Assembly: GCA_030704615.1 (NCBI GenBank)
Contig: CM060732.1
Coordinates: 10,850,001-10,914,000, forward strand
DNA: 64,000 nucleotides
Direction: 5' to 3'
From: Takakia lepidozioides
Taxonomy: Eukaryota; Plantae; Bryophyta
A program made the position numbers and the translations under genes. The notes under the pieces are model-generated. The model had not been told where the DNA came from and searched no databases. It worked only from the letters and a program-made list of their open reading frames with translations. Shown here piece by piece: positions 1-62,470 of the stretch. Each line of letters begins with the position of its first letter. Position 1 is the stretch's first letter.

Positions 1-1033
1 ACAGTTGGTGTGATTTGCAGCAAATGCGCAATCCATAACTTTATAGCGTGGAAGGGGCTATTCCAGCACCTTGAGGGGCCGCCCATGGATGATTACCATG
101 AATTTAGGCGGGGACATGCGGTGGAGATTAAGAGATGGCGAGAGTATTGGTCACCTAACTATGTCTCCATCACTAGAGGCACAAGGGCAACGGCGACACC
201 AACATCTACATAAAATCTCCAACTACAAGCACTAGTAGTGGGATGAGTGGTACATGAGCTAGGAATTCCACTCAAGCTCCTACTGCAGCACCAGCACCCG
301 TGCCTGCCTTTAACCCAGTTGTGGAGTTCTTCGAGGAGTTGAGGAGAAACTACCAAGGGATAAGGACAGAAAAGTTGCGGAGCTTGCAAGAGTTCCAACG
401 AAGGTCTACTGAGAGTTTGAGGGAGGCTTACACCCGCATGAGGCGCTTGATAAACGTAACTCAAGGGGTTACAGAAGCTCAGGCAGTCCAGTTCTGGTAT
501 GGGATCCTGGACAAGGAGCTGAGGAGAAGGGTGCGGGATGCAACTCTCCTACAAGTGGACCCACCCACCTTAGCAAATGTGTTTTTGCTGGCAGAGCGGA
601 TAGAGCTCAATATGGTGGAGGATCGAGTGGTTATGGTGGGATTTGGACAGGAGACACAACGAAGTGGGGCTCCTAGCCAACAACAACCACTATCCCAACG
701 TGTTCAAGGCAACAAGGGGGCTCAGGTGAAGCCGAGGGAAGGATAGAGAGGATCTCAGATGCAGAGGTCTCTTCCTTCATTCTCAGGCCAACAACAGTCA
801 GGTGTGACTTGTTGGGATTGTGGAGGACCCCGTCAAAAAGGATTGTCCGGAGAGAGGCAAAGGGCCGGCACAGACACAGCTAACATAACTACAGTGTGGG
901 CATTGTGGATGGGCATGAGGAGGCCCATTGTTATGGCTTGCATCCTGAGCTACAGCCAAGCCAGTTCCAAGGGAACAATGGTGGCCGAGGACGAGGCAAT
1001 GTAGTCCAGAGAGGTAGAGGAGGTAGAGGGCGG
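1..1033 (+). pseudogene. gag: gag of copy B (capsid-like region, degenerate CCHC knuckles, RGG-rich), disrupted
   Basis: Near-identical to 4993-6080 (WKGLFQHLEGPPMDDYHEF, ESLREAYTRMRRLI, CWDCGGP); contains stops and frameshifts. Confidence 0.85.
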
Positions 1034-1814: not shown

Positions 1815-2234
1815 TGTCATGGTTTTAGTCATGGTTATCTAGAATTACCTACTTCTAGTTAACTAGGACATTTTAGATATTTATATTTATATTTTGTGTG
1901 TTGGGACTTCATTTGGTCTCACATGCCAAGTGAGGTGTCGAGCCTCACTTGAGACATGGAGATAGGGTTTCCCCTTGTGAGTGTTGAGGAGGCTCATCTT
2001 CTTGTAGTTGAGCCTCCATGAGCTTCTCTCACCTCCATAGCTCTAGGTATTGAGAGGGAGTGTGTTGAGGGCTTTGTAGGGTGGATTCCTTTAGCAAGGT
2101 GCCCTTGGCTTGACTTAGTTTATGTGATAGAGTGGATTTCACTTGGAAGGACTAGGGCTTGTTCTTCATGTGATTGCTTCATGCTTTGAGAGCTTTCATT
2201 GTCTTCTACTTCTCTCATTTCTCATCTCTTATCA
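1815..2234 (+). repeat. Terminal repeat segment A1 (copies at 12399-12811 and 19228-19596)
   Basis: Direct sequence match tgtcatggttttagtcatgg…catctcttatc; differences from A2 are mostly 1-bp indels. Confidence 0.92.
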
Positions 2235-2246: not shown

Positions 2247-3545
2247 CACCTTATGCTTGTTGTGAGTGCGGAGTGTAAGGATTAGTTTTGCACTTGTATT
2301 TTAAAGAGGTTGAGAGCTAGGAGAATTTAGCTCTTGTATCACAAGGCTTGCAAGGGGTTGCAAGGAAAGGTGCTCGAGTATTGCATGCACCAAGGAGTTG
2401 GAGAGCTTGAGAAGAAAGCTCTTGAGTCACAAGATTTTGCAAGGATTGTAAGGAGGAAGTCTTGTGTGTGTGGAAGCATGGATTCTAGGGTTTGAGAATC
2501 CTTTGTATGCATTATGGAGTCGATGGTGTGCGCCATGGCTTGTGGAGAGTGACTAAAGGCTTGTTAGTGCTCATTTCACTATCAAGCTAGGGTTAAGCAA
2601 GTTCAAAGTGTGGATGTTGTGGAAGAGAAGCCAAGGAGCTATATATGCTTGGGCTTGAAGACAACAAGGGCAAGCACTTGGAGAGCACTAAGAAGCTCAA
2701 GAGGTTTTGAAAGGGAGCATGTGAAGAAATCTTCCAATCATGGTGGTGTGGAGCCAAGCTTAGGGTGCCATTGGAAGGGCTTGGAGAACATGTGGTGGGA
2801 AATCCTTGAAGGGAAATCATCATTCAATGTATGCATAGCTTCACCCTAACTATGTAATGTGACAAGAGGGGGAGGCAATACTTGGCTATTCATGCTCTTG
2901 GTAGTGCGAGCTTTGTGGTGGATAGTTGACCAAGCAAGTGGTGCATGTGTGGAGCATGCTCGCTTGAGTTTGTAAGTTCAAGTTTGAGAAGGGAGCTCTT
3001 GAACTAGCAAGAGGTGAAGGCCTTTGAGATCCATTTGTGTGTGAAGTGGAGAGGTGTTGATTCATGTTATGATGAAGGAGAGCAACACATAGGCCAAGAG
3101 GTCATGAAACATGCATTCAAATGACCACGGGGAGCACATGGATGATGGATTGGTGCAAGACCCCAAATGAGGCATATGGCGTGAGAGTGGGATCCAAGGC
3201 GGATTGCTTGGGAGCATTATTGTAAGTGACAAGCATTGCTCCTACACATTGAGATAATTTGTGTTGATTTGGAGCAATTGTCAAGTGATGAGGAGACAAA
3301 TGCATGATTGCTCGGCAATGGAGATATGGTAGTTTGCAATCAAATCCCAAGGACTAGAAGGGGGATTGATTTGGTGGACAATGACTTGCAAGTTGAGTTG
3401 GACCACTCTTGGTTGCACATTGGGGTGGAAGAGAGCAAGAAGATGCCTCTTATGACCACCTAGAGACCATATTTTTGCTTGAGTAGAAGCATAGAAGTCA
3501 AGGACTTGCATTCTAGCTCTTCATTACAAACCCTAGTAGTGTATG

Positions 3546-3941
3546 CTCAGACTATACCTCTGTTAGTATACCAAACAGGAGCTTGTCCCTTTGACTATAC
3601 CTCTGTTGAGGTATCACCATATGTGAACCCTAATGTGAGACTATACCTCTGTTAGTATACCAAACAGGAGCTTGTCCATTTTACTATACCTCTATTGAGG
3701 TATCACCATATGTGAACCCTAATCAGCTCAGACTATACCTCTGTTAGTATACCAAACAGGAGCTTGTCCCTTTTACTATACCTCTGTTGAGGTATCACCA
3801 TATGTGGACCCTAATCAGCTCAGACTATACCTCTGTTAGTATACCAAACAGAACCCTCATTTTACTATACCTCTGTAAGGTATCAACATAAGGGACCCTA
3901 GCACCTCAGACTATACCTCTGTTAGGTATAACAAACAGGAC
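3546..3941 (+). repeat. Tandem repeat (~90-bp unit, ~4.5 copies, two ACTATACCTCTGTT subunits per unit) in the 5' leader of copy A
   Basis: Repeated gactatacctctgttagtataccaaacaggagcttgtcc…actatacctctgttgaggtatcaccatatgtgaaccctaat. Confidence 0.9.
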
Positions 3942-4786
3942 TTATTTTAAGGCCTTTAGGATTGTTTGGAAGATATTTGAGGGCCCTTGGAATTTGGAGA
4001 CTGGACCTCTGAGGTTTCCAGTGGAGGACTTAGCCTTCGAGGAGCTTTGGTGGACAATGTTGAAGAGCTCTTGAAGGATTGATTGAGGGATATTGAAGGA
4101 TACTTGCCACGGCCATACAAGCGAGATAGAGATAGGAGAGAGGGAGAGTGGGAGAGTGGTGGATGAGAGCATTCTGGGGTTAGGAATTGCTTTAGTTTCT
4201 CTTCTCCATAGTCTTTCACCCTCTCTGTAGGCCAAAACCTTTCCGTAGGTGGAGGCAAGAGTCAGTCCGGGTTTGGGCTGGGGTGTCCTTGCAGGAGCGA
4301 CACTGTGGAGTGTTTTTTGTGTGGGGGAGTTGTTGTCTTGATTTTCTTGTGTTTGGATCCCCTCCACACCTGCATGCTTGACTGTGCGCCATGTTAGCTT
4401 TGTGTGGGCGCTTGTTTTCATAGGAGGTTGGTCCGGATTTGATCACCGGCCAATCCTAGAGTATGCTGTCGGTGGTGAGGCTGGAGTGATGACCAGCAAG
4501 ACCACCAGTGTTTCTTCTATGGTGAGGCTGGGTTGATGACCAGCAGACCATAGGAGTGCTTGCGGTGGATGCAGGTGCAGGTACAGGTCTACGTTAGAAA
4601 CCTATTATTCCTGCTTGAACCAGTAGCCGCAACAGGTTCTTTACCCGGTTACCTTGTAGAAAGTGGGGATTAGAGACAGGTTGACAACCGGTTGGGTTGT
4701 GAGTTTTCATCACGGAGGGTGCCACCAGCTGCTGAGGGAGTGCCGGTACAAGCACCAGCGATACTAGTGGGTACACAAGACAAGGT

Positions 4787-6354
4787 GTGCGGTTTAGGCC
4801 ACTTTCACCTTCAGTGTCTTCTGAGGAAGGTTCAGACTCGGAGTCAGGAGGATTCTCGCCGAGGGTGCAAGTCATTTCCGTGCCATTGTTGTGGGACACG
4901 ATGGAGGAGATGTATGGAGCTACCAAGGGGCCACGTAGGTACTCTGGAGCTGTGGGCACCATCGAGCTTGATGACTTTATACAAGAGTTTGACAGTTGGT
5001 GTGATTTGCAGCAAATGCGCAATCCACAACTGTTTACGCCCTTTATGGCGTGGAAGGGGATAGGGGCTATTCCAGCACCTTGAGGGGCCGCCCATGGATG
5101 ATTACCATGAATTTAGGCGGGGACATGCGGTGGAGATTGAGGAGTGGCGAGAGTATTGGTCACCTAACTATGTCTCAATCACTAGAGGCACAAGGGCAGC
5201 GGTGACAACAGCAGCTACACAAACATCTCCAACTACAAGCACTAGTAGTGGAACAAGTAGTGCCGGCACTTCTGCAGGTGGTACCAGTTCAAAAGTGTGC
5301 TACTACTCCTCCTGCCACAATTACAACACATGTGCCTAGATTCAACCCGGTGGTGGAGTTCTTCCAGGAGTTGCGGAGGAACTACCAAGGTGTACGGACA
5401 GAGAAGCTGCGAAGTTTGCAAGACTTCCAGCGCAAATCCAGTGAGAGCTTGCGAGAGGCCTACACTCGTATGAGGCGCTTGATAAGTGTGACCCAAGGGG
5501 TTACTGAAGCTCAGGCAGTCCAGTTCTGGTATGGAATTTTGGACAAGGAGCTCAAGAGAAGGGTGCGGGATGCAACCCTGTTACAAGCGGCCCAACCACA
5601 TTAGCGGATGTGTTTCTGCTGGCTGAGCGGATTGAGCTCAACATGGTGGAGGAGCGAGTTGTTACCATTGGATTTGGCAAGGACATGCCTGCACGAGGTG
5701 CAGCTGCCAGCCAACAGGTACAAGGGACTGCCCAACAGCGTGGTCAGGGGGGCAAGGTTGCCCAACCCAAGTTCCATGGAGCTTACAGGGGACCTCAGGT
5801 GCAGAGGCCGTGGCCGTGGATCTTTTGCAGGCCAACAGCAACCAGGGGTGATATGTTGGACATGTGGAGGACCCCATGTCAAGAGAGATTGCCCAGAGAG
5901 TGGCAGAAGGCCGGCACAAGCACAGCCTGCACAGTTGCAGTGTGGGCATTGTGGCAAGTATGGGCATGGAGATGCCCAGTGTTATGACTTGCACCCTGAG
6001 TTGCGCCCAGGCCAGTTCCAAGGGAACAATGGTGGCCGGGGGCGAGGTGGACCAGCCCAGAGAGGACGAGGTGGTCGGGCACGAGGTGCAGGCCAAGGGC
6101 AAGCTCAACATGGCCAAGGACGCGGAGGTCAGGGTGTTGACCAAGACATGGCCAACCGGCTTCAGCAGCTAGAGCAGAGGCTCGCTGCCATGGCTACAGC
6201 TCAGGTGGTACCGGCTCCCAGGCGGGATGGTCCACCTCCTGCTCCTGAGGGAGGAGATATGGGAGGCATGGGATTCATGTGCGGAGCAGCACTACCACTA
6301 GTGCAGGTGGAGTCTGCTGCAGCCGTGACTCGAGGAGAGCACACGAGTTCCTGA
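4787..6354 (+). CDS. gag: Gag of copy A (frameshifted in this assembly; start uncertain); two Zn knuckles and an RGG-rich nucleocapsid region
   Basis: ORF pieces 4787, 5094, 5248, 5608; CWTCGGPHVKRDC and CGHCGKYGHGDAQC; RGRGG repeats. Confidence 0.8.
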
Positions 6355-7300
6355 GCCACGAGGTGCAGAGGTGGAGGTGGAATTGGATCCACAGCGTGGG
6401 GAGGCAAGCCGTCAGGCGAGGCTTCCTCAGTCATTCACATTGGCGGAGACAGTGTCGACGCCATCCATGGCACCTAGTTCTCGCCCGACTGTTACCGAGG
6501 CGGAGGTTACTATGCCATTGGGGAGAGCTACACGTGCAGCACTGACACCTGCTACCAAGGCTAGTGCAGCCGGTGTGTTATTGGGGGCAGCCACCTCTGT
6601 GTGTCAAGCCCCACTGTTCTCGGCAACCATGATTGCGACGCCGGGGTGGGTAAGACCAGCTGCAGTGTTCAGACTAGCAGCAACACTCTGCGAGAGTGGG
6701 GAGGTCACTTCATCTTCTGCGGAGTTACTGGAAGGTGTAGTGGCAGAGGGATCCTCGGATTTGAGGGTCAAGACTGCCACGGCTGCGCCATGGCAAGCTG
6801 CAGCTGCCAGGTTGACGGAGCTGCCAGCTAGGCCAGCCTTTGAGCGCGCCATGGTGACACCTGGAGTTGTCTTGTTAGACAACCAGGAGGCATTTTCACT
6901 TTGAGTGGACCGGCAGGCAAGAAGTACCGGCCACTGCGGGTCTTGTTGGACTCAGGAGCTCAGCCACTGATGTTGGGCAGAGCTGCTATTGCAGGTTTGG
7001 GCCTCATGGAGGCGGATATGGAGCCTTGTCCTTTCCAGATACAGACATCTCTGGGAGGATCAGAGCAGGCTCGGGGCATGACACGGCGTGAGTTGGCCAT
7101 TGGACTACAACCAGATCATCCTGTAGATGGCTCAGTGATGCGAGCCAAGGCCATTGTGACAGACGCGGTCTCTTACGATGTCCTTGTTGGTGGGGCAGTG
7201 TTATATCCCATGGGCTTCACCCTGGACTTTGGGAGGAGTCAGCATCCTACAGGCCTGGATGGCAGTCAGGGGATGGTCGTCGTGCACAGCTCCCTGTGAC
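6355..7300 (+). CDS. Gag C-terminal region and aspartic protease of copy A
   Basis: VLLDSGAQPLMLG active-site motif and downstream YDVLVGG motif; continuous in frame with gag in copy B (ORF 12832-13935). Confidence 0.85.
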
Positions 7301-7629
7301 ATTCATTGGGGGTATTGCGGCTGCCCAGCGGGGCAAGATGCCAACACTAGCCGCCTTTACAGCTGCAGTTAGTTGGTGGCCTGGAGAGTTGCTGGAAGGC
7401 AATGCCCATGCAGAGGATGTGCCACCTCCAGCAGAGCAGGATGACATGCATGGTACGGCGGAGTTGCCTGCCATGGTTGCTCACACTCCATTATGGGGTA
7501 CGAGCAAGGATTTGCAGCAGGCTGCTGATGGACGGGTACAACAAGCCTGGGTAGAGCCTTCGTACCGTCAGGAGAAGAGGAGAGTGCGGTGATTGCACCA
7601 GGACCACCTCAGTTGTCGCCATTGGACAC

Positions 7630-8630
7630 CACACCTCTTGTGTGGCAGTGCCCGGATGAAGGCATATGCCTTCTGGACTTGTTTGGCGGGATCAGCACTG
7701 GATTGGCTGCAGTACTGCAGGCAGGTGTACGAGTTCGACGTTACCTGTATGTGGAGAGGGATGAGACTGCACGACGCGTCTCACTGCGCCATGTTGCTCA
7801 GTTGGTACAGCAGTACCCTGATTTGATTTGTTGCCAGTGTCTGCAGTTCGTGGATACCAACAAGCCTTGCCAGCAGACATTTCGTTGCTGGGGGCAGGAT
7901 TTGGAGCGGGTTGGCTCCATTGATCTGGTAGTGGCAGGTTGGCCCTGCCAAGGGCATTCATCAGCCGGGCATGGCAATGGATTGCGAGACTCGAGGACGG
8001 GTCTGTTTTGGGAGATGGTGCGGATTTTGCGCCACTTGCAGCTTCATCAAGCTGTATCTCAGCATACATCTGGAGAATGTGCCACTGATGGGTGATTCTC
8101 GGGCCAGGGTGATGGCCAGTGTGCATCAAGTCCGGTCGTGGCTTGGGTCAGCAGTGTTGCTGGATGCAGCTGCAGTGGGGTCACTGGGCTCATCGTCCAC
8201 GGCTATGGTGGACTAACTTGATGCCACCCGCACTGCTCAAGCGTGCATTTGATGGGGTGCAGCGGCCAGCACACCTCACAGTGGATAGCATTTTGGACAC
8301 AGGGAGGCAGTCTCAACGTGTGAGACACGATGACCGTTCGCCTTTGGCAGTGGTCAACAGGGTGGGTCAACCACGAGCAGCATTACCTACACTGCTCAGC
8401 TTCCCAGGATCCCATGCTTTTCGGGATGGTGGACCTGGCCTCTTGTGGGATAGCCAGTTGCAACAATTAGTGGAGCCCAATGCTGACGAGCGCGAGCGGG
8501 CGATGGGTTTTACCACAGGTACCACGGCGGTGCCATCTCTTTCTGAGGCATCACGTCGTCAGGTGTTGGGGCAAGCAATGGATCTCAATTGCTTGACCTG
8601 GATTATCAGCTTGGCTATGGCTGAGCAGCG
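7630..8630 (+). CDS. DNMT3-like DNA (cytosine-5) methyltransferase domain within the retrotransposon polyprotein
   Basis: Motif I LLDLFGGIST, II YVERD, IV DLVVAGWPCQGHS (catalytic Cys), VI LENV, VIII AHRPRLWWTNL, IX ERERAMGF..GTT, X RRQVLGQAM; split by 1-bp indels. Confidence 0.9.
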
Positions 8631-8913
8631 CAGAGTACGGAGTACACTTCCCTTCATGGTCTCCCTGCCTACCGAGACGGTACAGGCAGCGAGTGGGGGC
8701 GAGCAGGTGAGGACCACGAGGTGCAGGCCGCATCCATGGCACACGTGGGAGGTGCTCGAGGTTCAGAAGGAGTTGGCAGCCAAGGCGGCGGTGATGGATC
8801 AGGTTGGGGATTTTTCTCGGATTGAGGAGGTCCTCAAGGATGGGATGATGGGGCAGGATGAGACATTGTCACTGACAGAGGAGGCAGTGGTCACTGCTCA
8901 AGAGGTTGCAGCA

Positions 8914-8922
8914 TAGCAACCA
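8914..8922 (+). promoter_or_regulatory. Putative stop-codon readthrough signal UAG-CAA-CCA (UAG-CARYYA)
   Basis: Same TAG CAACCA in copy B at 15739-15747; frame after the TAG is open into RT (in frame with ORF 9043). Confidence 0.7.
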
Positions 8923-10546
8923 CGGGACGCGTCTTCTACCTCTAAGCCTGCTGGACTCAAGGTTGCAGTCACGGAGGACAACTGGGAGCCTGATGTTGGA
9001 CCTATAGTCACCGGAGGAGAGAGACGACGTATACGGCGGTTCTTGAGGGCTTACAGGAACTGCTTTGCCTTCAGTTTGAAGGACTTAGGAGCACTGAAGG
9101 GTCAAGAGATTCGCATTGAATTGGCTACTGACACGCCAATCTTTCGGAGACCCTATAGATACAGTGACATGGAGAGGTCCTTGATTCAGATGAGAACTCA
9201 GGACCTTTGGGAGGCTGGTTTGGTGGAGCTATCTGGGGGAGAGTATGCTTCAGCCACAGTGATGCCAGCCAAGAAGGATGTCTTTGGCAATTGGACGAGG
9301 AGAGACGTATGTGCGGTGATTACCGGCCTGTAAATCGTCAGACCAAGTCCGATAGGTATGCCATGCCAACACCAGAGGAGATCTTTGATGCCATTGGGCA
9401 TGCCAAGGTCTTTAGCACTTGGATTTACGATCCGGATATCACCAGTTGCCGATCAAGGAGGGCGGATAGCAAAAGACGGCATTCTGGGGGATCAATGAGC
9501 ACGGGAAGGATTGCCTATACCAGTGGCGGTTCTTACCATTGGGCTTAAGAACGCTCCGGCAGAGTTTCAGAGAGTCATGGACAGGATTCTAGCAGGGGTG
9601 GAGTTTGCTCGGTGCTACATAGATGACATCATCATCTTTAGTGCTACGGTGGAAGAGCATGAGAGACACCTTCAGGGGGTATTTGAGCGCTTGAGGGCGC
9701 ACATTGAAGTTACATCCGGGAAAGTGCAAGTTTTTCCACAACCAGATTGAGTATCTGGGTCACATGATATATCCTGGAGGATTGGGGGTACAGCAGACTA
9801 AGGTAGAGTCCATTGCACAGGTTCCACGCCCCACGGATGTGAGCCGAGTTCGAGCTTTCATGGGGTTAGCAAACTATTATAGACGGTTTGTTAAGGGATT
9901 TAGTGCCATTGCAAAGGCTCTAACCAAGCTGACCAAGGTGGACCAGGAGTGGCAGTGGGAAGATGAGCAAGAACAAGCTTTTCAAGAGCTCAAGGCGAGG
10001 TTGACCTCGGCGCCCATCTTGAGACGACCTATCAGGGGGCGTCCTTTTCAGCTGCATACAGATTGGAGCATGCTGGGGCTTGGAGCGGTGCTCACACAGG
10101 TGGATGATGAGGGAAGAGAGTTCGTAGTGGCTTATGCTAGCCGCTCGAACAACGTTGCAGAGTCTAAGTATAGCTCATATGAGGGAGAATGCTTAGCTGC
10201 AGTGTGGGCCGTGGCACACTTCAGGTGCTATCTATACGGCAATCTCTTCACCCTTGTCACGGATCACCAACCACTCAAGTGGTTGATGGAGTCAGACAAG
10301 CTTACGGGGAAGCTTGCACGGTGGGCACTCATCCTTCAAGAGTATGACTTTCAGGTGGTGCATCGACCGGGTTTGGTCAATCGCAATGCAGATGGGTTGA
10401 GTCGCAATCCATGCACGAGCCAGCAGGATGACACTGGAGCTCGGTGGCATGGTGAGACGGACGAGGAGATGGTGCCCGGATGGCATGCATCTGCATTTCT
10501 GTGTATCTTGGCAGCGGAAGGCCAGTTGGACCTGCAACAGGGATGA
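8917..10546 (+). CDS. pol: Reverse transcriptase and RNase H of copy A (frameshifted in assembly)
   Basis: RRMCGDYRPVN, GLKNAPAEFQRVMD, YIDDII; RNase H LHTDWS, YEGECLA, VTDHQPL, NADGLSR. Confidence 0.95.
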
Positions 10547-12052
10547 CTGTAGATCAAGTGTCTGAGGACCCTGAGGCCAGCAATGAGCAAGGTGGCGCCA
10601 AAGATATACATGAGGATTCAGTTGTGTTGGACTACCTCCGCACTGGAGACACTGCAGCCACTGTGACTGCCAAGGAGAGGGATCGGATCCTACAACGAGC
10701 CAAGAGGTTCAAGTGGGAGGGGACACACCTGCTCCGAGTGTGGGAGGATGGTCGAGTGAGGATTGTGCCTCACCCAACACAGCGGGCACGGTTAGTGCGG
10801 CATGCCCATGAGGAGTTGGGGCATTTTGGGGTGCGACGCACTCATAGTCTACTGCAGGGGCAGTATTGGTGGCGTGGTATGCACACAGAGGTGCAACAAT
10901 TTGTGGCTAGGTGCATGGTGTGTGACAGGGTGCGTGCTTCATTCAACGCCCCTACTCCACAATTGCACCCTCTTCCGATCATGGGATTGGGCTACAGGTG
11001 GAGTCTTGACTTCGCAGGGCCGTTGCCACTGACCATGCGCCACAACAAGTACGTGTTGGTGATGGTGGAGCACTTCTCCAAGTGGATTGAATTGGTTCCA
11101 TTGCCTGATAAGGCTAGTGAGGGAGCTGCGTATGCATTCTTGGATTGTGTGCTTAGCCGATTCGGTGCTCCAGCTGAGGTACTCACGGACCAAGGGAGAG
11201 AGTTCTTGGGGGAGTTTCAGGCTTTGTGTGACAAGGCCTTGATAGACCACCGCACCACTTCTCGGGATCATCCTGAGGCCGATGGCTTGGCAGAGAGAGT
11301 TGTTCAGACAGTAAAGAGGGGTTTGCGCAAGTATGGCTTGCAGAAGGGACACCTAGGAGATTGGGACCTTCAGTTACCCTGGTTAGCCATGGGCTACAGG
11401 TTCAGCAAGCAAGCATCACTTGCCTCCTTCTCACCATACTTTCTTCTCTTTGGCCGAGAGCCGGATTTGCCTACATCCATTCGCAGAGAAGCTGCTACAG
11501 TTCTTAACCTTGACGATCCGGACGTGTGGGCACGTGCATGTGAGCAGCGTGCAGAGTTGTTCAAGAAAGTCATGCCCATGGCTTTCGAGAACCTTGCCAT
11601 TGCACAACATCGTGATACGTTGAGGTATGCTACCATACGTGGTGGGGCTATCGTCCTGGGGTTCGGAGATTCAACCCTGGTGACTATGTTTATCTGCAGC
11701 AGACTGCTCCTACGACCTTGGATGTGACTGCAGGACGTACTATTTTGAGGGTTCGAGAGGTGTTGCCCTCAGGAGTCCTGATCTTGGAGGGTCGGGATGG
11801 CATGATTTGGAAGGACCATGTGCGTAATTGCGCGCCATGTCACCTTCCAAATGTTGATGGAAGGGTTGACCCAAACCTGGCAGTGTAGTGGTACCTGCAA
11901 GTTTGAGGTGCATGTTGTGTGGGTCTGCTAGAGGGGCAGCCACCATGCTGGTGTGTGATCAATGCTCTAGAGGTTGGCATATGGGATGCTTGACTCCACC
12001 TCTTGAGATGGTTCCTGATGGGGATTGGTTATGTCCGCATTGCATTGGATAG
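10547..12052 (+). CDS. pol: DDE integrase with C-terminal PHD finger (copy A)
   Basis: HHCC (HAHEELGH…CMVC), WSLDFAGP, LTDQGREF, GLAERVVQ; C-terminal CMLCG…MLVCDQCSRGWHMGCLTPPL..VPDGDWLCPHC, stop at 12050-12052. Confidence 0.92.
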
Positions 12053-12295: not shown

Positions 12296-12309
12296 GCTAG
12301 GGGGGCGAT
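12296..12309 (+). promoter_or_regulatory. Polypurine-tract-like sequence before repeat B1
   Basis: GCTAGGGGGGCGAT directly before TGTGGTATAGC; equivalent tract at ~19127-19140 in copy B. Confidence 0.7.
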
Positions 12310-12881
12310 TGTGGTATAGCTTTCTAGGATTGTGTGCTTAGATTGTGTGGTGGACAGCGATGTATGTTGTTGTGGCACGATGCTTAGGTGCCGACAGCTG
12401 TCATGGTTTTAGTCATGGTTATCTAGAATTACCTACTTCTAGTTAACTAGGACATTTTAGATATTTATATTTATATTTTGTGTGTTGGGACTTCATTGGT
12501 TCACATGCCAAGTGAGGTGTCGAGCCTCACTTGAGACATGGAGATAGGTTTTCCCCTTGTGAGTGTTGAGGAGGCTAATCTTCTTGTAGTTGAGCCTCCA
12601 TGAGCTTCTCTCACCTCCATAGCTATGGTATTGAGGGGAGTGTGTGAGGGCTTGTAGGGTGGGATTCCTTTAGAAGGTGCACTTGTGCTTGACTTAGTTT
12701 ATGTGATTAGAGTGGATTGCACTTGGAAGGGACTAGGCTTGGTCAATGTGATTGCTTCATGCTTTGAGAGCTTTCATTGTCTTCTACTTCTCTCATTTCT
12801 CATCTCTTATCTAGGACTGTGTGCTTAGATTGTGTGGTGGACAACGATGTATGTTGTGGCACGATGCTTAGGTGCACGACA
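12310..12881 (+). repeat. 3' terminal repeat block of copy A: B1 (12310-12396) - GC - A2 (12399-12811) - B2 (12812-12881, 5'-truncated)
   Basis: B = tgtggtatagc…gcacgaca (~85 bp) occurs twice around A2. Confidence 0.9.
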
Positions 12882-13970
12882 AGGTCATGACCAAGGCATG
12901 GTGGATAGATTTGCCCAGCTAGAGCAACGTCTTGCTGCCATGGCCACTACTCATGTTGCGCCAGCTCCAAGGCTTGAGGTTCAAGCCCCACCTGCACAAC
13001 CTCCTATGCCTAGGGAAGATAAGATTGGTATGGGCTTCATGTGTGGAGCCGCACTTGCAGGGCCATTGCATGTATTGGACTCTGCTGCTGCTGTCACTCG
13101 AGCAGCAACGCGTGCTCCTGAGCCAAGAGGAGCGGATGTGGATTTTGATCCACAAAGGGGGGAAACAAGTCGTCAGACCAGGCTTCCACAGTCCATTACA
13201 TTGGCTGAGACAGTGCCACCTACGCCATCAATGGCACCCGCTTGCCCAAGTGTGTCAGAGGTAGAGCCACGAGTGTCATTAGGGAGAGTTGGTGTGGCTC
13301 GGGAAATGCTAGTGGGTGATGCTGCAAAACACGATGCAGCCAGTACATTGTTGGGGGCGGCTACGGCGGTTTGCCAAGCTCCATTATTTTCTGTAATGAC
13401 CATTGCAATGCCGGGGATTTGGCCAGCTGCTGTGTTCATACTAGCAGTTAGACTCTGTGAGAGTGGTGATGCATCGGCACTATCTGCGGAGATAGCAGAT
13501 AAGGTACAGTCTATGGATGCTTTGGATTCGAGGGTGAAGTCAGCCACAGCTGCGCCATGGCAAGCGACAGTTGCAAGGTTGCAGGAGTTGCCAGCTAGGC
13601 CAGCCATTGAGCGCAGCATGATGACTCCTGAGGTAGTCCTGGTGGACAATCAGGATGGAGTGTTTCAATTGGGTGGCCCAACCTGGAGGAGGTATAGGCC
13701 ACTGCGGGTCTTGTTGGACTCGGGAGCACAGCCATTGATGTTGGGGAGAGCAGCAATTGCAGGCTTGGGCCTTACAGAGGCAAATTTGGAGCCTTGCCCT
13801 TTCCAAATTCAAACATCTTTGGGTGGTTTAGAGAAGGTGCGAGGGATTACACGCCATGAGCTCTTCATTCGATTGCAGCCGGACCATCCTACGGACGGCT
13901 CAGTCATGAGAGCTTACGAACGCGATCTCTTATGATGTGCTTGTTGGTGGGGCTGTGTTGTACCCCATGG
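12882..13970 (+). pseudogene. Gag C-terminus and protease of copy B
   Basis: ORF 12832-13935 with VLLDSGAQPLMLG; homologous to 6140-7210. Confidence 0.88.
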
Positions 13971-15400
13971 ATGATTTGGGCCGGCATGGTGCAATTGACT
14001 TGGTGATAGCTGGATGGCCTTGCCAAGGACACTCTCCCGCAAGTCATGGGAATGGCTTGCATGAGGCACGATCACATTTGTTTTGGGAGATGTTGAGAGT
14101 GTTGCGTGACTTGCAGACGAGGCAACTGCAACCTCTAGCCTATATCTTGGAGAATGTTCCTCTTATGGGGGACTCTCGGGCCAAGGTTATGGCCAGTGTG
14201 CATCAGGTGCGGTCGTGGATTAGATCAGCGGTGCTATTGGATGCAGTAGCGGTGGGATCACGAGTGCATCGACCTCGATTGTGGTGGACCAATCTTGCAC
14301 CACCAGAGCTGCTCAAGAGAGCATACGATTCCATTCAACGGCCACCCAATCTCACAGTTGAGGGCATTTTGGACCAAGGGAGGCAACCACAAAGGGTGCG
14401 ACATGATGACCGTCCACCTCTAGCAGTAGTAAATCGAGTGGGGCAGCCACGTGTAGCCTTGCCTACGTTCATGAGCTTTCCCTCGTCTCATGCTTTTCGA
14501 GACAATGGTCCTTGGTTGATTTGGGACAGTGTGCTACAGCAATTGGTGGAGCTCAATGCGGATGAGCAGGCTTTACTTTGGACTTTTGGGAGGAAATGAC
14601 ATCCTACAGGCCGGAATGGCAGTCAGGGGGTCGACGTGCACTGCTCCCAGTGCGGTTTATTGGGAATGTAGCGGTGGATCATAGGAACATGATGCCCACA
14701 TTGGCTGCATTCTCAAGGGTGGTGGCTTGGGGTGGTGACCTCTTGGAGGGCAATGGCCATGCAGATGATAGGCCACCACCTGATGAGGACAAACAATTGG
14801 CATACAAGGCTGAGTTGCTTTCTCATGTTCTTGTGCATAGCTCATTGTGGAATACAGTTGGGGATTTGCAGTGAGTGACAATTGCAAGCCAGTGTGTGCA
14901 GCAAGCATGGCATGATACCTTTCCATCGGTAGGTGAGGGGAATTCAGTTACATCACCTGGACCTCCTCAATTAGCTCCATTGGACACAATGCCTATTATC
15001 TGGCAACAACCTGACTCAAGCATTTGTTTGCTAGAACTGTTTGGAGGCATGAGCACTGGGCTTGCAAGAGTGTTGCAAGTTGGGATTAAAGTACGAAAGT
15101 ACTTGTATGTGGAGAAGGATGAGATAGCTCGGCATATTTCTATGTGCCACGTTGCCTTGCTCACACACCAGTATCCTGAGCTGCTGCCTTTCTCAGCAAT
15201 TCAAGGGTACCAAAAGGCCTTGCCAGCAGACATTACTTTGTTGGGGGAGCAGGCAATGGGTTTTGCCACGGGCACTACAGCTGTGCCAGCTCTATCAGAG
15301 GCATCACGACGCCAGGTGTTGGGTCAGGCAATGGATCTCAATTGCTTGACATGGGTCATAGGCTTGTGCATGGCTGAGCAATGGATATTGCAAACATTGG
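13971..15400 (+). pseudogene. DNMT3-like domain of copy B, internally rearranged (motifs IV-VIII placed before motif I)
   Basis: 13971-14570: IAGWPCQ, ILENV, HRPRLWWTNL; 15030-15253: LLELFGGMSTG, YVEKD; 15253-15380: AMGFATGTT, RRQVLGQAM. Confidence 0.85.
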
Positions 15401-15741
15401 TGGCTACTTCTGTACTTCCATTGGATATTGCACCATCTCTGCTAACCAGGACGGTGGAGGCAGTGAGTGGGGGCGAGCACAGGATGATGGGGTGCAAACA
15501 CCCATGGCAGATGTATGATAAGATGCGCAAACAAAGGGAAATTGGATCTCTCAAGCAGCAGTATGAGGAGTGAGGAGAGCCATACACTGAGGATCAGTTG
15601 GAGGCCAAGGTGACCAATGTTTTTGAAGAAGTTGAGAATGTTTCTTCCCCAGAGGATGTTCTCAAGGTGGCTATGGCGGAGCAAGTGGAGGCTACGTCAC
15701 GGTCAAGGTGGGTAGATAAAGCCCAAGAGGTTGCTATCTAG

Positions 15742-18700
15742 CAACCAAAGGATGCGTCTCCTACTTCCAAGCCTGGTGTACCCAAGGTTGCAGTCACTGA
15801 GGACAACTGGGAACCAGATGTTGAACCTACTGTCACCGGAGGAGAGAGGCGGAGGATCCAGCGATTTCCAAGGGCTTATAGAAATTGCTTTGCCTTCGGT
15901 TTAAAGGATTTGGGGAGTTTGAAGGGCCAGGAGATTTGGATTGATTTGGCAAGTGACACGCCAATTTTTCGAAGGCCCTACAGGTATAGTGATATGGAGA
16001 GGTCTTTGATCCAGTCACGGACTATGGAGTTGTTCGAAGCTGGATTGGTGGAGTTGTCTGGCGGGGAGTATGCCTCGGCAACGATGATGCTAGCTAAGAA
16101 GGATATCTATGGCAATTGGATAGAAAGGAGGATGTGTGGGGATTACCGTCCTATGAACCGTCAGACTAAGTCCAATAGATATGTCATGCCAACTCCAGAG
16201 GAAATCTTTGATGTCATTGGGCATGCAAAGGTATTTAGTACATTGGACTTACGATCGGGTTATCACCAGTTGCCAATCAAAGAGGTTGACAAGCAAAAAC
16301 GACATTCTGGGGGATTAACCAGCATGGGAAGGATTGTTTGTACCAATGGCGCTTCCTACCATTTGGGTTGAAGAATGCTCTTGCAGAGTTTCAGAGGGTC
16401 ATGGATAGGATTCTTGTGGGGCTAGACTTTGCCCGGTGCTACATTGATGACATCATCATCTTTAGTGCTACGATTGAGGAGCACGAGAGACACCTTCATA
16501 TGGTGTTTGAGCGTTTGAGAGCGCATGGGTTGAAATTGCACCTTGGGAAGTGTAAGTTCTTCCACAACCAGATTGAGTATCTGAGCCACATGATATACCC
16601 TGGAGGATTGGGTGTTCAAAAGACGAAGGTGGAGGCCATTGCACGCATTCCACGCCCCATCGATGTTAGCAGAGTTCGTGCTTTCATGGGGTTGGCAAAC
16701 TACTATCGACAGTTTGTCAAGGGATTTAGCAGCATTGCAAAGGCTCTTACCAAGTTGACCAAGGTGGGTCAGGAGTGGCAGTGGGAGGAGGGGCAGGAGG
16801 AAGCCTTTGAGGAACTCAAGGGCTCGATTGACTTCTGCGCCTATTCTGAGGCGGCCTATTTGGGGGCGGTCTTTCGAGCTACATACGGATTGGAGTATGC
16901 TAGGGATTGGAGCAGTGCTCACACATGTGGATGATGAGGGAAGAGAGTTCGTAGTGGCATATGCTAGCCGCTCGAACAATGATACCGAGACAAAGTATAG
17001 TTCTTATGAAGGGGAGTGTCTAGCTGCAGTATGGGCAGTGGCTCATTTTAGATGCTACCTCTATGGCAATCTCTTCACCTTTGTCACGGATCACCAACCA
17101 TTGAAGTGGTTGATGGAGTCAGACAAGCTTACAGGGAAGCTTGCACGGTGGGCACTTATGCTTTAAGAATACGACTTCCAGGTGGTGCATCGAGCCGGAA
17201 TAGTCAATCGGTATGCGGATGGATTGAGTCGCAATCCATGCACAAGTGAGCTTGATGATACAGGAGCTCATTGGCATGGTGAAACGGACGAGGAGATGGT
17301 GCCAGGATGGCATGCATCTGCCTTTTTATGCATTCTAGCAATGGGAGCTCAAGGTGGTCCATCCCATGTGATTAGTCATAGAGATAATATGCATGACGAT
17401 CCAGAGATCAGTGAGGAGCTTGGTGGTGCTAAAGATGTACATGAAGATTCAGCAGTGTTGGCCTACCTTCATACTGGAGAGACAGTAGCCAGTGTGACTG
17501 CTAAGGAGAGAGATCGGATCCTACAACAAGCCAAGAGGTTCAAGTGGGAGGGGACTCACCTACTCCGAGTATGGGAGGATGGACGAGTGAGGATTGTGCC
17601 TCATCCAACACAACGAGCGCGATTGGTATGCCATGCCCATGAGGAGTTGGGACATTTTGGGGTGCGGCGCACTCATAGTTTGCTGCAAGGACAGTATTGG
17701 TGGTGGGGCATGTACACGGATGTGCAACAGTTAGTGGCAAGGTGCATGGTGTGTGATAGAGTGCGGGCTCCTTTCAATGCACTTACTCCACAATTGCATC
17801 ATTTACCCATTATGGGTTTGGGCTATCGTTGGAGTCTTGACTTCGCAGGCCCATTGCCATTAACGATTCGCCATAACAAGTATGTGCTGGTGATGGTGGA
17901 ACATTTCTCCAAATGGATTGAACTGGTGGCATTGCCTGACAAGGCAAGTGAGGGGGCTGCGTACGCATTCTTAGATCGAGTGCTTAGCCAATTTGGTGCT
18001 GCCAGCCGAGGTACTCACGGACCAGGGGAGAGAGTTCTTGGGGGAGTTTCAGGCTTTGTGTAAGCAAGCCTTGATAGATCACCGCTACTTCTCGGGATCA
18101 TCCCGAGGCTGATGGCTTGGCTGAGAGGGTTGTGTAAACAGTCAAACAAGGCTTGCGCAAGTATGGCTTGCAGAAGGGACACTTGGGAGATTGGGACCTT
18201 CAGCTACCTTGGTTGGCCATGGGCTACAGATTTAGAAAGCAAGCATCACTTGCCTCGTTCTCGCCTTATTTCCTTCTCTTTGGCCGAGAGCCAGATTTGC
18301 CTGCATCTATTCGCAGGGAGACTGCAGTAGTCCTCAACCTTGATAATCCGGATGTGTGGACACAAGCATATGCCCAGCGGGCAGAGTTGTTCAAGAGAGT
18401 CATGCCTATGGCTTTTGAGAACCTTGCTATTGCCCAACACCGAGACACATTGAGGTACGTCACTATACGTGGATGAGGATATCGGCCAGGTGTTTGGCGT
18501 TTCCATCCTGAGGACTATGTGTATCTGCAGCAGACAGCGTCTACGACCTTGGATGTCACAGCAGGTCGTGTGATTCTAAGGTCCGAGAGGTGTTGCCTTC
18601 AGGAGTGCTGATTCTAGAGGGTCGAGATGGCATGGTATGGAAGGACCATGTGCGCAATTGTGCGCCATGTCACCTTCCACATATGGATGGGAGGATACAT

Positions 18701-18877
18701 CCCAACCTTGCAGTGGTACCTGCAGGGTTGCGTTGCATGCTATGTGGGCATGCTGGTGGTGCCGCGACCATGTTGGTGTGTGACAAATGCTCAAGGGGGT
18801 GGCACATGGGATGCTTGACACCGCCACTTGAGGAGGTTCCTAGTGGAGAATGGTTGTGTCCACGATGCCTTGGATAG
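15742..18877 (+). pseudogene. pol: RT-RNaseH-integrase-PHD of copy B (stops and frameshifts)
   Basis: YIDDII, LHTDWS, WSLDFAGP, PHD CMLCGHAGGAATMLVCDKCSRGWHMGCLTPPLEEVPSGEWLCPRC; premature TAA at 17164-17166 and ~18135. Confidence 0.92.
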
Positions 18878-19140
18878 ACGTAGTGGGGCATGACAGGGGT
18901 GAGGTTGACAAATGATCCAAGGTCTAGCTAACGGGAGTTCAATGCCATGGACACCCAATTGAAGCCATGGATTACAGGAAGGCGAATAACGATGGGGCTA
19001 CTTTTGCACCCGGCCTCTTGATCTATTGCCTTCAAATACTGGGACTTGGGCGATTGATGACCAAGCGATGATCTTATTGGGATGGATACTTGTCAGCTAT
19101 CCGGTGTTAGAGGGACCTAATCACCAGCTAGGGGGACGAT

Positions 19141-19683
19141 TGTGGTATAGCTTTCTAGGATTGTGTGCTTAGATTGTGTGGTGGACAGCGATGTATGTTG
19201 TGGCACGATGCTTAGGTGCACGACAGCTGTCATGGTTTTAGTCATGGTTATCTAGAATTACCTACTTCTAGTTAACTAGGACATTTTAGATATTTATATT
19301 TATATTTTGTGTGTTGGGACTTCATTTGGTCTCACATGCCAAGTGAGGTGTCGAGTCTCACTTGGGACATGGGGATAAGGTTTCCCCCCTTGTGTGAGGA
19401 TGGAGGAGGCTCATCTTCTTGTAGTTGAGCCTTCATGAGCATTTCTCACCTCCATAGCTCTAGGTATTGAGAGGGAGTGTGGTGAGTGCTTTGTAGGGTG
19501 GATTCCCTTAGCAAGGGTGCCCTTGGCTTGACTTAGTTAATATGATTGAGTGGATTCATGAGTGGAGGGTTTCCATTATGTTCACTTTCATTATCTATTG
19601 TGGTATAGCTTTCTAGGATTGTGTACTTAGATTGTGTGGTGGACAACAATGTATGTTGTGGCACGATGCTTAGGTGCACGACA
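19141..19683 (+). repeat. 3' terminal repeat block of copy B: B1 (19141-19225) - GC - A (19228-19596) - AT - B2 (19599-19683)
   Basis: Same B-A-B arrangement as copy A, with a full-length B2. Confidence 0.9.
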
Positions 19684-55690: not shown

Positions 55691-57267
55691 TTATCCTCCC
55701 TCTGTAGTACTAAATACCATTTTCTTAGCATTTTGAAGTGACACGCAACACCAGAGGTCTAGCACCTCCAAATCTGTCAACTGCTTCATTGAATCTGGAA
55801 GGTCCTTTAAACTTATGCAATCACCAAGCACGAGCTTCTGAAGCCCTGTCAACTCCCCAATAGACTCTGGTAGGCTATTGATTGATTGACACTGTGAGAG
55901 GTCCAAGAGTAGTAAGTTTCTGAGCTGCCCAACAGAATGTGGGAGACTCTTCAGACTCGTACAGTTAGTGCCAGTTAGGTTCTGTAGCCTTCTCAACTCT
56001 CCAAGAGAATCCGGTAAGCCCTGAATAGAGCTGCAGTGCGCAAAGTTCAAATCACACAAGTCCCCCAACTGCCCAATAAAATGAGGTAGGCTCTTCATTC
56101 TTTGGCAATGGGCAAGGTTAAGCTTTTGTAGACCTCTCAATTCCCCAATCGACTCAGGTGCATACTCAATGGAGTGGCAATAAGAAAGGTCTAACTCAAG
56201 CAGGTCTGTCAATTGCGCAATGCAATGAGGCAAGCTAGTCAGACTTATACAATGAGCAAGATTCAGTTTCTGTAAGCTTCTCAACTGCCCAATTGTCCCT
56301 GGCACACTCTCAAGTGACAGGCAGCCCTGAAGGTTGAGCTCCTGTAGCTCTCTTAATTTTCCAATGGACTGTGGTAGGTTCTTGATACTAATACAGTTTG
56401 ATAGAGTCATCTTCAGCAACCCTCCCAGTTCCCCAATAGACTCTGGTAGATTCTCAAGGGAGTCACAATACTCGAAGATAAGCTCTTGCAAGTCCCAACT
56501 CAGATGTCCAATGGAAATTGGCAGCTTTTGATACTTATGCAATCAATAAGAGTTAGCTTTCGAAGCCCCCTCAACTCTCCAGTACAGATAGGAAGACTTT
56601 CAAGCGATTTACATTGTGAGAGGTCTAGCTCCTCGATGCCTCCCAACCCATGCCCAATGGATTCTGGGAGGCTTTTCAGACTTGTACAATTAGCAAGCTG
56701 TAGCTTCAAAAGCCCTCTCATCTCCCCAATAGACTCTGGGAGGGTCTCCATTGACTCACAGTAGCTGAGGTCTAGCTCATGCATTCTCTTCAAATGGCCA
56801 ATGGAATGAGGTAGGCTTTTCATTCTTCTACAATGAGCTAAAATTAACTTTTTAAGCTCCCTCAACTCGCCAATGGATTCAGGGAGACTGTCAAGTGATA
56901 CACAATACCAAAGGTCTAGCTCTTGAAGATCTCTCAGGTGTACTATGGATTGTGGCAGCCTCTTCAAACTTTCGCAATTAGCCAGAGTAAGCTTTTGCAG
57001 TTCGTGCAAATCCCCTACAGACTCTGGCAAGCTACCAAGTGACTCACAATACCCGAGGTCTAGCTCGTGGAGGCCCTTCAATTGTCCAACGGAATGTGGT
57101 AGCCTCTTGGCTCTCCGACAGTGAGCAAGATTCAATTTTTGGAGCCCCTTCAACTCCCCCATAGACTCTGTGAGGCTCTCCAATGATTCACACTCCCAGA
57201 GATCTAGCTCCATCATGCGCCCCTCAACTGCCCAACAGAATAAGGCAAAGTCTTCATATTTTGACAA
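55691..57267 (-). CDS. LRR-only protein of NLR-type 24-aa repeats; one frameshift at ~56520 (pseudogene or assembly error)
   Basis: ~21 repeats of LPESIGELxGLQKLNLAHCxxLxS in ORFs 56500-57267 and 55691-56542; the paralog shows the missing base (gcagActt). Confidence 0.8.
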
Positions 57268-58274
57268 TCACCAAGAGTCAGCTTTTGCAGTTTCAATCTC
57301 AAATCCACCATGGACCCTGGCATGGTGTCAAAGGTATATACAAACTAAAGTCTAGCTATCCTGAGAGGTTTTGGCTCCTGCGGTGCCACCAACTATTTCC
57401 TTGGCCACCAACAATACTCTCTACTCATGAGCAGCGGCATGATCATGGAATGAGGTACACCCTACACTCACCTAGCGGTGTCAGGGATTTGCAGGCGCTA
57501 GTGCTCTAATTGGATTTTCTCTCTATGGTGGTCTGGAGGAAGACTAGTGACGCATGAAATACAGGAAGGATGTGACTATTGAGGTGTCAAGGGCCACATA
57601 CCCCTTACACTTGACTCTTTCTGCTCTTTGACTGTTGGGGGAATAACACTTGAATTCTTATAAACGGTCAATTTCAACTATCCGTTCAACTCACTCGAAC
57701 CTCGCGTCCTAGAGACAGATCTCGTTGAAAACTTCGTGCTGTTTCTAATCTCAGACTCTATCATCTCTGGTCCGTCACTCGATCAGTTTCGAGGTTTCAG
57801 AACCCGGGAGTGGGAGCCTAGGACCTTTGCGCAACGCGGGCCATGCCCAAATGCCACACAAGCAGACCTGACGACGGCTCTATTGTAGGTCACCAAACTG
57901 CAGACTCAAGGACAAGGCTGAAGGCATTCGAATTGCTAGCCGCAGCCTCCATTCTTCTGGAAATTTCCCGGAGTGGCACGATTGGCCTGTCGTTCGCCTT
58001 TTACTTTCAGATCTTCCTCCTAAAAGTTTTGGAAACAAAGAATTTTCAGCCTGCATTCTGGGCTGTGTTCTTCTTTGGACATGTGTGATGGAAGAAAATA
58101 CAGGCAGGTAAAAGAAGGGACATGCATCATCCACCATGCAGAAAAATTGCACCCTTGTGAAGTAACGTACCAAGATCTTCCACCAATCTCACCTTCCTGC
58201 TAGATGATGCAAGTGAGAAAACTCTGGAAAGCCCCCTCTCTTGTCTCATGTCTATGCGATCTGCAGATCCCCTA

Positions 58275-58480: not shown

Positions 58481-59329
58481 CTCTGCATGCCAACCTTAGG
58501 GGATATTTATATCCCCACCCTTCTTTTTTCCAACAAATCCAATAATGGCCCACATTTTCGCCTTCAGAGAGTCATGAACACGTGGCCGGGATGGACGACT
58601 GTGAAGTCCGGGGGGAGCCACGTCAGATGGGTGCGGCCTCTCCGCGTCTGCCACGTCAGAGATGCGAGGTCCAAGGGCGGCAGGCAGCCTCATCACTCGA
58701 GACTCTGCGCTGTACCGCCTGCTCTCTCTGCTCGCTCGCTCGCTCGCTCGATGGCGGGCCCCGGTGTGTGGAACGTGCACAGGAGCGTGCAACACTGCTG
58801 CTTCTCTTTTTTCGTGTTTCTAACTGAGATGTCTTCACTGACCTTTTCTTGATTTCTCTTTTCCTGGTTTGTGCTGGGGATCTTTGATGCTCTTTGCTTC
58901 TCCGTTCTTTCCTCGCTTCTCAGTTGAACTGACGATTCCTCTTGTTGTAATCAATTTATTGGATATTTTTGGGTTTAGTCTCTTCAAGATTTTCCATGCT
59001 CGACGGCCGCTGTGTTCGAGAAAGGGTGTTTAGATGACGAGCATCGCGAACAGACGTACTTGGCTGCTGTGAGAGGTCTTTTCCAGTTCCAAATTCTGGC
59101 AGGCTGGAGATTTGGGTCTCTAGTGATCAGCGCAGGAGAACGTGAATGAAATCGGGGTGGGGAGAGGAGGAAGTGAAGCGATCAAAAGAGAACAGGATTT
59201 CTGAGTGAGGAGATGAGGCTGAAAGATTTTGATGGAAGTGTTGTAGACAAGAGAAGTGGTTCGTGTTAGTGGAGGGAGAGTGAAGAGGTACAACAATATC
59301 GATAGGCGGGGGAGGAGGAGTGTTAGAGA

Positions 59330-61003: not shown

Positions 61004-61624
61004 GACCCTCTCTCACACCTGGGTTCTAGTGTCTGACCACAAGCTACAGTAAGGACAGATTGACCAGTATGCCACTCCTCTCTCTCTCTCTCTCCCAAAC
61101 TGGGTACAGGGTCTATGGCCAAAAGGCTACGGCAAACGTCATCTTATGAGTACATTCTCTCTCTATTGTAAACCCCCACATTCTCTTTTCACAGCATTAG
61201 GCCGTGTTAGGCAGGAACCTGCTTAGCGATATCAGGATTAATTATTTTTATTTGTGCAATCCCATAGAGTCACTGTGCTTCCTATGGATGGAATAAATTG
61301 TCTTCATCCTCTTCTTCACCTGATGTGGAAGATCCTGTATTAGAGAATTATCTCAGCCATGCCTGAACGTTAATTTTCCTATAATCTCACTACCCCTATC
61401 GTGTGATGTGCAGTTTTACTTATCTGTGCAAGATGCAGGTAAACTCCGACCTTCTACCATTGATGCTGTTGAATGGGCTGGCTCTTGCCGATTCGCCCTA
61501 GAATCAAAAGTGAACACTATTTTTTCAGCGGACCTTTTACCTGCAGGGCAGAAAGGGCAGAGAACCTCAACTGCAGATGCAGTTGCCATGAGGGACATCG
61601 TGTAATATTACCAATCCACAAATT

Positions 61625-62470
61625 TAATCTAGAAGGTCCTTCGAACTTATGCTATCAGCAAGCGCGAGCTTCTGCTGCCCTGTCAACTCCCCAACAGACT
61701 CTGGTAGGCTATTCAATTGACATCGTGTGAGGTCCAAGAGTAGTAAGTTTCTGAGCTGCCCAATGGAATGTGGCAGACTCTTCAGACTTGTACAGTTAGT
61801 GCCAATTAGGTTCTATAGTCTTCTCAACTCTCCAAGAGACTCCGGTAATCCCTGAATAGAGCTGCACTGGGCGAAGTTGAAATCGCACAGGTCCCTCAAC
61901 TGCCCAATAGAATGGGGCAGGTTCTTCATTCTTTGTCAATGGGCAAGGTTAAGCTTTTGTAGACCTCTCAATTTTCCCATCGACTCAGGTGCATGCTCAA
62001 TGGAGTGGCAATATAAAAGGTCTAATTCAGGTCTGTCAATTGCGCAATCCAATGAGGCATCGAGTGACAGGCAGCCCTGCCGGTTGAGCTCTTGTAGCTC
62101 TCTTAATTTTCCGATGGACTGGTACATTCTTGATACATACACAGTTTGATAGAGTCAACCTCAGCAACCCTCCCAGTTCCCCAAGAGACTCTGGTAGATT
62201 CCTAGTGGAGTCAAAATACTCGAAGGTAAGTAAGCTCTTGCAAGTCCCAGCTCGGATTTACAATGGAAAATGGCAGACTTCTGATACTCATGCAATCAGT
62301 AAGAGTTAGCTTTCGGAGCCCTCCGAACACTCCAATACAGATGGGAAGGCTTTCAAGTGACTTACATTGTGGGAGGTCTAGCTCCTCATGCCTCCCAACC
62401 CATGCCCAATGGATTTTTGGAGGTTTTTCAGACTTGTACAATTAGCAAGCTGTAGCTTTAAAAGCCCCAA
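61625..62470 (-). pseudogene. Degenerate duplicate of the LRR ORF
   Basis: Collinear with 55790-56712 but with deletions, frameshifts and stops. Confidence 0.85.

Follow-up and report, generated by a model that had tools for sequence, protein, structure and literature searches.

A candidate tobamovirus-type readthrough stop between the DNA methyltransferase and reverse transcriptase of a clade of Gypsy retrotransposons

Gypsy retrotransposons with a cytosine methylase have been described from Klebsormidium nitens, where KnitGypsy-Dnmt3 combines Gypsy domains, a Dnmt3-related DNA methyltransferase (DNMT) and DIRS-like repeats (de Mendoza 2018). The main text of that paper treats the reason why retrotransposons carry cytosine methylases as an open question. 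It reports that the DNMT of the Klebsormidium element had no activity in yeast, a result that its authors call inconclusive, and, figures aside, it mentions neither readthrough nor a stop at a junction. Later work, in the portions available to us, cites Gypsy-DNMT3 elements as streptophyte elements.

In-frame stops are known from several other retroelements, among them MuLV gag-pol, Tj1, Tca2 and SIRE1 pol-env. The relevant parts of these reports put MuLV readthrough, which uses a pseudoknot, at 5% and state that transposition of Tj1 requires its stop. The in-frame stop of Tca2, placed in a yeast reporter with its local context, gave no readthrough (PMC2194720, PMC4600332, PMC2829016), so the presence of an in-frame stop does not by itself imply local readthrough. 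Type I readthrough is specified by UAG-CAR-YYA and serves the tobamovirus replicase and the coat-protein extension of benyviruses and pomoviruses; the portions of the literature consulted add that UAA-CAA-UUA occurs naturally, that the signal works on UAA too and that CAA-UUA gave 6-10% readthrough in an alphavirus reporter (PMC3159437, PMC3542737). The original prediction had named UAG-CARYYA as the tobamovirus-type context, and it equals the type I context published in those two papers. Ogre elements of the Tat clade are described as having GAG-PROT separated from RT-RH-INT by a spliced spacer of about 274 bp (Neumann et al. 2019, PMC6317226). The existence of Gypsy-DNMT3 elements is thus established, and so, independently, is the readthrough of stops in retroelements. 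We found no paper that combines Gypsy-DNMT3 with readthrough at a junction in the openly searchable literature, subscription papers lying outside that scope.

Two decayed Gypsy-DNMT copies in Takakia

The window, by which we mean the whole stretch of DNA analyzed, comprises 64,000 nt of Takakia lepidozioides (assembly GCA_030704615.1, contig CM060732.1, positions 10,850,001-10,914,000, forward strand). It contains two dead Ty3/Gypsy retrotransposon copies, A and B, with the order gag, protease (PR), DNMT, stop, reverse transcriptase (RT), RNase H (RH), integrase (IN) and PHD finger. Pfam and tblastn searches recovered gag, the aspartic protease, the C5 DNA methylase, RT, RNase H, integrase and the PHD finger in that order, and the Gypsy domain order gag-PR-RT-RH-IN is present. 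The features are as follows.

1..1024, + strand: gag fragment of a third copy, 77% identical to 4992-6075, ending short of the stop site
1815..2233, + strand: 5' repeat A of copy A, 95% identical to 12399-12811
4901..6201, + strand: gag of copy A with CCHC-type knuckles, frameshifted (Retrotrans_gag match below the curated cut-off)
6868..7230, + strand: aspartic protease of copy A with an LLDSGA motif, DSG at 6949-6957 (match below the curated cut-off)
7652..8640, + strand: DNMT3-like C5 methyltransferase domain of copy A, frameshifted
8641..8913, + strand: variable tail of 91 codons from the DNMT core to the stop, copy A
8914..8916, + strand: in-frame TAG closing gag-PR-DNMT in copy A, the candidate readthrough codon
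8917..8922, + strand: CAA CCA of copy A, matching the CAR-YYA type I readthrough context
8917..12043, + strand: pol of copy A (linker, RT, RNase H, integrase, PHD finger)
12308..12881, + strand: 3' repeats of copy A (B at 12308-12396, A at 12399-12811, B at 12810-12881)
12882..19683, + strand: copy B, 5'-truncated, with 3' B-A-B repeats at 19139-19683
15739..15747, + strand: TAG CAA CCA of copy B, at the equivalent site and in the equivalent frame

The repeats of copy A form DIRS-like split direct repeats (A-coding-B-A-B), as do those of a relative, L033. Copy A has a long 5' region that separates repeat A from gag, and in it, at 3545-3949, are tandem repeats of about 90 nt. The DNMT of copy A retains the motifs LFGGI, WPCQ (7940-7951), ENVP, HRPR and LGQAMD, and the DNMT domain of an intact relative, L073, had DNMT3A/B/C as its best PDB matches (E about 6e-8), ahead of HaeIII/HhaI. 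Judged by its sequence, the methylase is Dnmt3-related and has catalytic motifs. PHD fingers were found at 11876-12043 and 18578-18868. In all complete relatives examined, a PHD finger and not a chromodomain ends the integrase; the term "PHD" is absent from the main text both of de Mendoza (2018) and of a survey of plant LTR elements (PMC6317226).

Both copies carry many frameshifts, including several in the pol region of copy A (the first near 9297), and copy B meets a premature TGA before it reaches the conserved stop. Since both are dead, no intact expression is expected from this locus. Copy B also shows protease-DNMT blocks in swapped order (13973-14567 and 14569-15247, matching 7898-8491 and 7213-7894 of copy A), which is either a rearrangement or an assembly artefact. 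Far downstream, leucine-rich-repeat, resistance-gene-like sequences at 55691-57290 and 61622-62467 (- strand), duplicated about 5 kb apart, flank a Core-2/I-branching glycosyltransferase gene at 59327-61003.

The original prediction placed TAG CAA CCA at the same site in both copies, with the frame of copy A open into RT. Both statements were confirmed: the nine bases occupy 8914-8922 and 15739-15747, and the copy A frame stays open for 138 codons past the stop (8917-9333). The copy B frame is likewise open, for 209 codons (15742-16371), and in both copies the stop shares its frame with the upstream DNMT C-terminal motifs and with the downstream start of RT. Neighboring codons had been said to differ between the copies, which holds for codons -2, -1, +3 and +4, whereas codons -5 to -3 are identical. 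TAGCARYYA occurs five times in the window against 3.48 expected, a count reached by 32 of 100 shuffles, and with copies about 80% identical (79% in the stop region) simple arithmetic predicts nine identical bases about 12% of the time. Given this chance count and this identity, the motif match in the window copies alone proves little; its significance therefore comes from relatives rather than from the window.

The stop in intact and distant relatives

The relative L073 has an ORF1 with gag, knuckles, protease and DNMT that stays open for 1369 codons, then TAG CAG TTA, then an ORF2 of 1047 open codons running from RT to PHD, all in a single frame. The stop is the sole interruption in its 2417 codons. 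Equivalent junctions, both reading TAG CAA TCA, were present in L081, where ORF1 is cut off by the contig end, and in L070, which has one frameshift upstream. RT and DNMT are under selection in these three elements: amino-acid identity is 70-94%, with the codon retained at only 43-61% of shared residues. In Marchantia, Calypogeia and assemblies, ORF1 proteins mostly terminate 59-168 aa past the DNMT core; for records of about 1250-1430 aa comprising gag, protease and DNMT, this distance is mostly 79-144 aa. The proposal that gag-PR-DNMT is one ORF, which had been reached by cross-correcting the window copies, is unreadable in those many-times frameshifted sequences, but it was shown in the intact relatives, by L073 and by proteins of this length.

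Relatives with host names come from Marchantia, Calypogeia and Sphagnum. Four Marchantia ORF1 copies (P0101, P0102, P0103 and P0106) bear Mp_Vg gene names, which by label places them on the V sex chromosome; two are full-length, with a 1281-aa ORF1. The contig holding L081 (CADCWO010000201.1), an intact-looking Gypsy-DNMT3 element, is filed under a cyanobacterial genome assembly, where it is most likely eukaryotic contamination. Scanning of viral contigs found no relatives.

To this we added a metagenome scan, from which the best 80 of at least 196 confirmed loci, among at least 600 matches, were kept; because only these 80 were retained, a single family dominates the set. Both the DNMT and the RT anchor, and hence a scorable junction, were present in 62 of the 80. 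The homologous codon was TAG in 41 of these, TAA in 19 and TAC in 2, giving a stop in 60 of 62. With near-identical copies merged and the two window copies added, the counts became 40 TAG, 16 TAA and 2 TAC (n = 58). Four of the other 18 loci reach the site, and all four read TAG CAA CC; the remaining 14 break off early, are interrupted or have no anchor. The original prediction had called for the alignment of more copies, with a majority of sense codons as the adverse outcome; a sense codon was found in only 2 of 62 loci, representing one event on the tree.

We considered whether the two TAC copies, L013 and L031, form a stop-free subfamily and rejected this, since they trace to one event on a long shared branch and are probably one old insertion seen twice. 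A propagated TAA subfamily was likewise rejected. On a tree of 52 copies the TAA copies are scattered and mostly reflect decay, and their frequency (15 of 52, or 0.29) falls within the 0.02-0.38 of G-to-A decay at 18 other TAG-context sites.

Such decay is common, averaging 0.18 at TAG-context sites. Both window copies are heavily decayed, and the window shows no enrichment of the motif. The stop could on these grounds be taken for a decay product (of CAG or TGG, via methyl-cytosine deamination) or for a chance match, copied in either case from one dead ancestor. This explanation is refuted by intact L073 and L081, by the locus counts and by the comparison of lineages: the stop is the only break in the whole coding length of L073, and it is present in five lineages in which RT and DNMT have been kept under selection. 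We regard it as extremely improbable.

All five lineages with the junction have the stop followed by CAR-YY, and four have the full CAR-YYA.

Window lineage: CAACCA
L062: CAACCA
L063/L064: TAA CAATCA
L065/L070/L073/L081: CAGTTA or CAATCA
Large family: CAACCC

The large family has CCC as codon +2 in 49 of 52 distinct copies, so it lacks the A at +6 and is one base off the motif. Between lineage representatives (copy A of the window and the others), the DNMT C terminus is 46-72% identical, and the 45-nt flanks, compared in register, are 20-47% identical, which is near random. As a background, CARYY follows 62 and CARYYA 17 of the 7459 stop triplets in these elements, a frequency that does not give a true P value because the lineages share ancestry. 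Since codon +2 differs in the residue it specifies (Leu, Ser or Pro) and is united only as YYN, selection appears to act on the nucleotides of the RNA. We looked for a shared RNA structure 3' of the stop in seven 100-nt folds and found none: z scores ran from +1.55 to -1.45, with none of the seven below -1.5, and there was no common shape.

Within the window's own family, contigs from four of four runs listed no substitution at or above 1% at 8893-8923 (501 records in run X1), in data where run contigs drop rare variants and X1 may be the window's own source. Positions 8934, 8949, 8950 and 8958 do vary in same-family run contigs, and one low-depth contig of run X5 has different letters across the stop site.

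Ways of making Pol across the junction

A stop that is conserved in this manner could still leave Pol to be made separately, by reinitiation at an AUG just past the stop or from an internal promoter, so that Gag-PR-DNMT would remain the major product and no fusion would be made. The large family fits this best, as it has an in-frame ATG at codon +3 (nt +7) in 50 of 52 copies (CAA CCC ATG, for example at 1470-1481 of L001) and has also lost the +6 A; it may have switched to reinitiation, or added it. In-frame ATGs also occur past the stop at +5 in L063 and L065 and at +14 in L070, and the junction of gag and pol in Tca2, from what we could consult of its description, contains a promoter and lacks a local readthrough signal (PMC2194720, PMC4600332, PMC2829016). 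Against this, the first in-frame ATG past the stop is at codon +85 in both window copies and at +117, inside RT, in L073, and the first Met of L081 is equally deep in RT. No conserved start codon follows the stop among the compared sequences, and reinitiation leaves the shared frame and CAR-YY unexplained. We consider separate production of Pol unlikely.

Splicing could also remove the stop if the AG of TAG served as an acceptor, with spliced RNA giving Gag-PR-Pol and unspliced RNA giving Gag-PR-DNMT. The available account of Ogre provides the precedent (PMC6317226). The TAG does end in an in-frame AG, pyrimidines make up 67-72% of the 18 nt before it in five of seven sequences, and seven annotated gene models connect DNMT to pol. 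Those seven models, however, use seven different joints, none of them at the base behind TAG. Upstream of the stop lies open coding sequence of 45-52% A+T, and the window copies have only 39-50% pyrimidine there. The plant splice acceptor consensus would accept CAG, yet CAG replaces TAG in 0 of 62 loci, and an acceptor would not need CAR-YY. The TAA copies are no help against splicing, because they are scattered and mostly reflect decay. Run X8 is RNA only by guess; its one contig crosses the junction with no joint and is left out of account here for both expression and splicing. Splicing of this kind is a quite improbable route.

Genetic codes in which TAG specifies a residue exist, as does TAG editing in fungi, and the stop could in principle be recoded by such a host code or by RNA editing. 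A changed code would scatter TAG through the frame and need no context, whereas L073 has only one TAG in 2417 codons. The closest named hosts are liverworts and Sphagnum, which use the standard code. We judge recoding of this sort to be very unlikely.

Readthrough best explains the junction because the stop is single, in frame, located in a linker and followed by a fixed hexamer. On the sequence evidence, we assign a probability of about 0.8 to tobamovirus-type readthrough, with Gag-PR-DNMT as the major and an RT-bearing fusion as the minor product. The original prediction had named the same two products, and its interpretation is supported. The conserved TAG and CAR-YYA between the gag-protease-DNMT3-like and the RT-RNase H-integrase-PHD frames would then constitute a programmed leaky stop. 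Most ribosomes would terminate at the TAG and yield Gag-PR-DNMT, and a few per cent, in which a near-cognate tRNA read the stop, would continue to give the RT-bearing fusion. Judging from known type I and MuLV levels, the ratio of DNMT to RT would be roughly ten or more to one; if the site behaves like MuLV (5%) and CAA-UUA (6-10%), DNMT would exceed RT some ten- to twentyfold. As a further step, the DNMT may co-assemble into particles as part of Gag, be released by the protease and then methylate new cDNA or the DNA at the insertion site.

A wider proposal, which we offer tentatively and think somewhat less than even in its favor, is that in this clade a captured DNMT3 was relocated to the Gag side of a leaky, tobamovirus-type stop that the elements had newly gained. 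Particles would thereby carry as many methylases as shell proteins and could deliver either a densely pre-methylated new copy or a dose of methylase to host chromatin, the element setting its own epigenetic state on arrival.

Place in the wider family and comparison with known systems

We built a tree from 236 residues of the RT connection and RNase H (29 rows, midpoint root), without the short hits L013, L031 and L065 and without L062 and L081. The stop-bearing loci and two Marchantia models formed one branch (95/92). P0043 and P0045, in which DNMT is fused to RT in one frame as described for KnitGypsy-Dnmt3, fell outside this branch, and elements with DNMT between RNase H and integrase lay further out still. 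Full DNMT-RT fusions were sought among protein records of 2185-5000 aa. Of the 150 best representatives (at 50% identity), DNMT lies behind RT/RNase H in 73, before integrase only in 19 and fused ahead of RT in 4; a further 7 stop after gag/protease-DNMT, and the other 47 each consist of a DNMT piece alone. DNMT has shifted its place within the polyprotein at least once. With the midpoint root, the simplest reading is that DNMT first reached a position ahead of RT and that the stop was then gained once. Because most wider relatives have DNMT inside one open Pol frame, a methylase at Gag level would be a feature of one clade.

The elements with DNMT between RNase H and integrase (P0040, P0046-P0058 and 73 of the 150 representatives) make up a far larger Gypsy-PHD set with single ORFs of 2200-3600 aa, one of them named from Haematococcus.

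If a recoding site kept the methylase as abundant as Gag and left RT at a few per cent, this would mean that the clade needs its methylase in quantity; the fused-frame relatives provide a natural control. The junction offers a conserved candidate readthrough site of tobamovirus type in a nuclear plant element, testable in Marchantia. It also explains why Marchantia gene annotations end there or invent introns across it.

Like KnitGypsy-Dnmt3 as described in the main text of de Mendoza (2018), the window element has Gypsy domains, a Dnmt3-related DNMT and DIRS-like ends (A-coding-B-A-B). The two differ, by description, in that the DNMT of KnitGypsy-Dnmt3 is placed in the ORF of RT and RNase H, whereas a conserved stop separates them here. 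Since its DNMT lies outside that ORF, the window element is a variant rather than a plain member of Gypsy-DNMT3. The named hosts of its relatives are land plants, unlike that of KnitGypsy-Dnmt3, and no Klebsormidium-named protein was among the relatives recovered by protein searches.

Ogre, in the account available, shares the split between a protease-bearing ORF1 and RT. The frames of L073, in contrast, are only one codon apart, with no non-coding spacer bearing splice sites, and its ORF1 includes DNMT. The junction resembles type I tobamovirus sites, as far as these are set out in the material consulted, in having UAG-CAR-YYA; those sites have no extended 3' structure (PMC3159437, PMC3542737), and the seven 100-nt folds of the window element and its relatives gave no shared one. 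It differs in belonging to a nuclear retrotransposon and not an RNA virus, in its CCA/CCC variants at codon +2 and in that only some of its copies have xxA ahead of the stop. With MuLV, Tj1, Tca2 and SIRE1, in the reports as consulted, it shares a single in-frame stop, which in those elements sets the ratio of structural to enzymatic protein. MuLV uses a pseudoknot, and none is evident in the seven folds made past the stop here. The stops of those four elements follow gag or pol; that of the window element follows gag-protease-DNMT.
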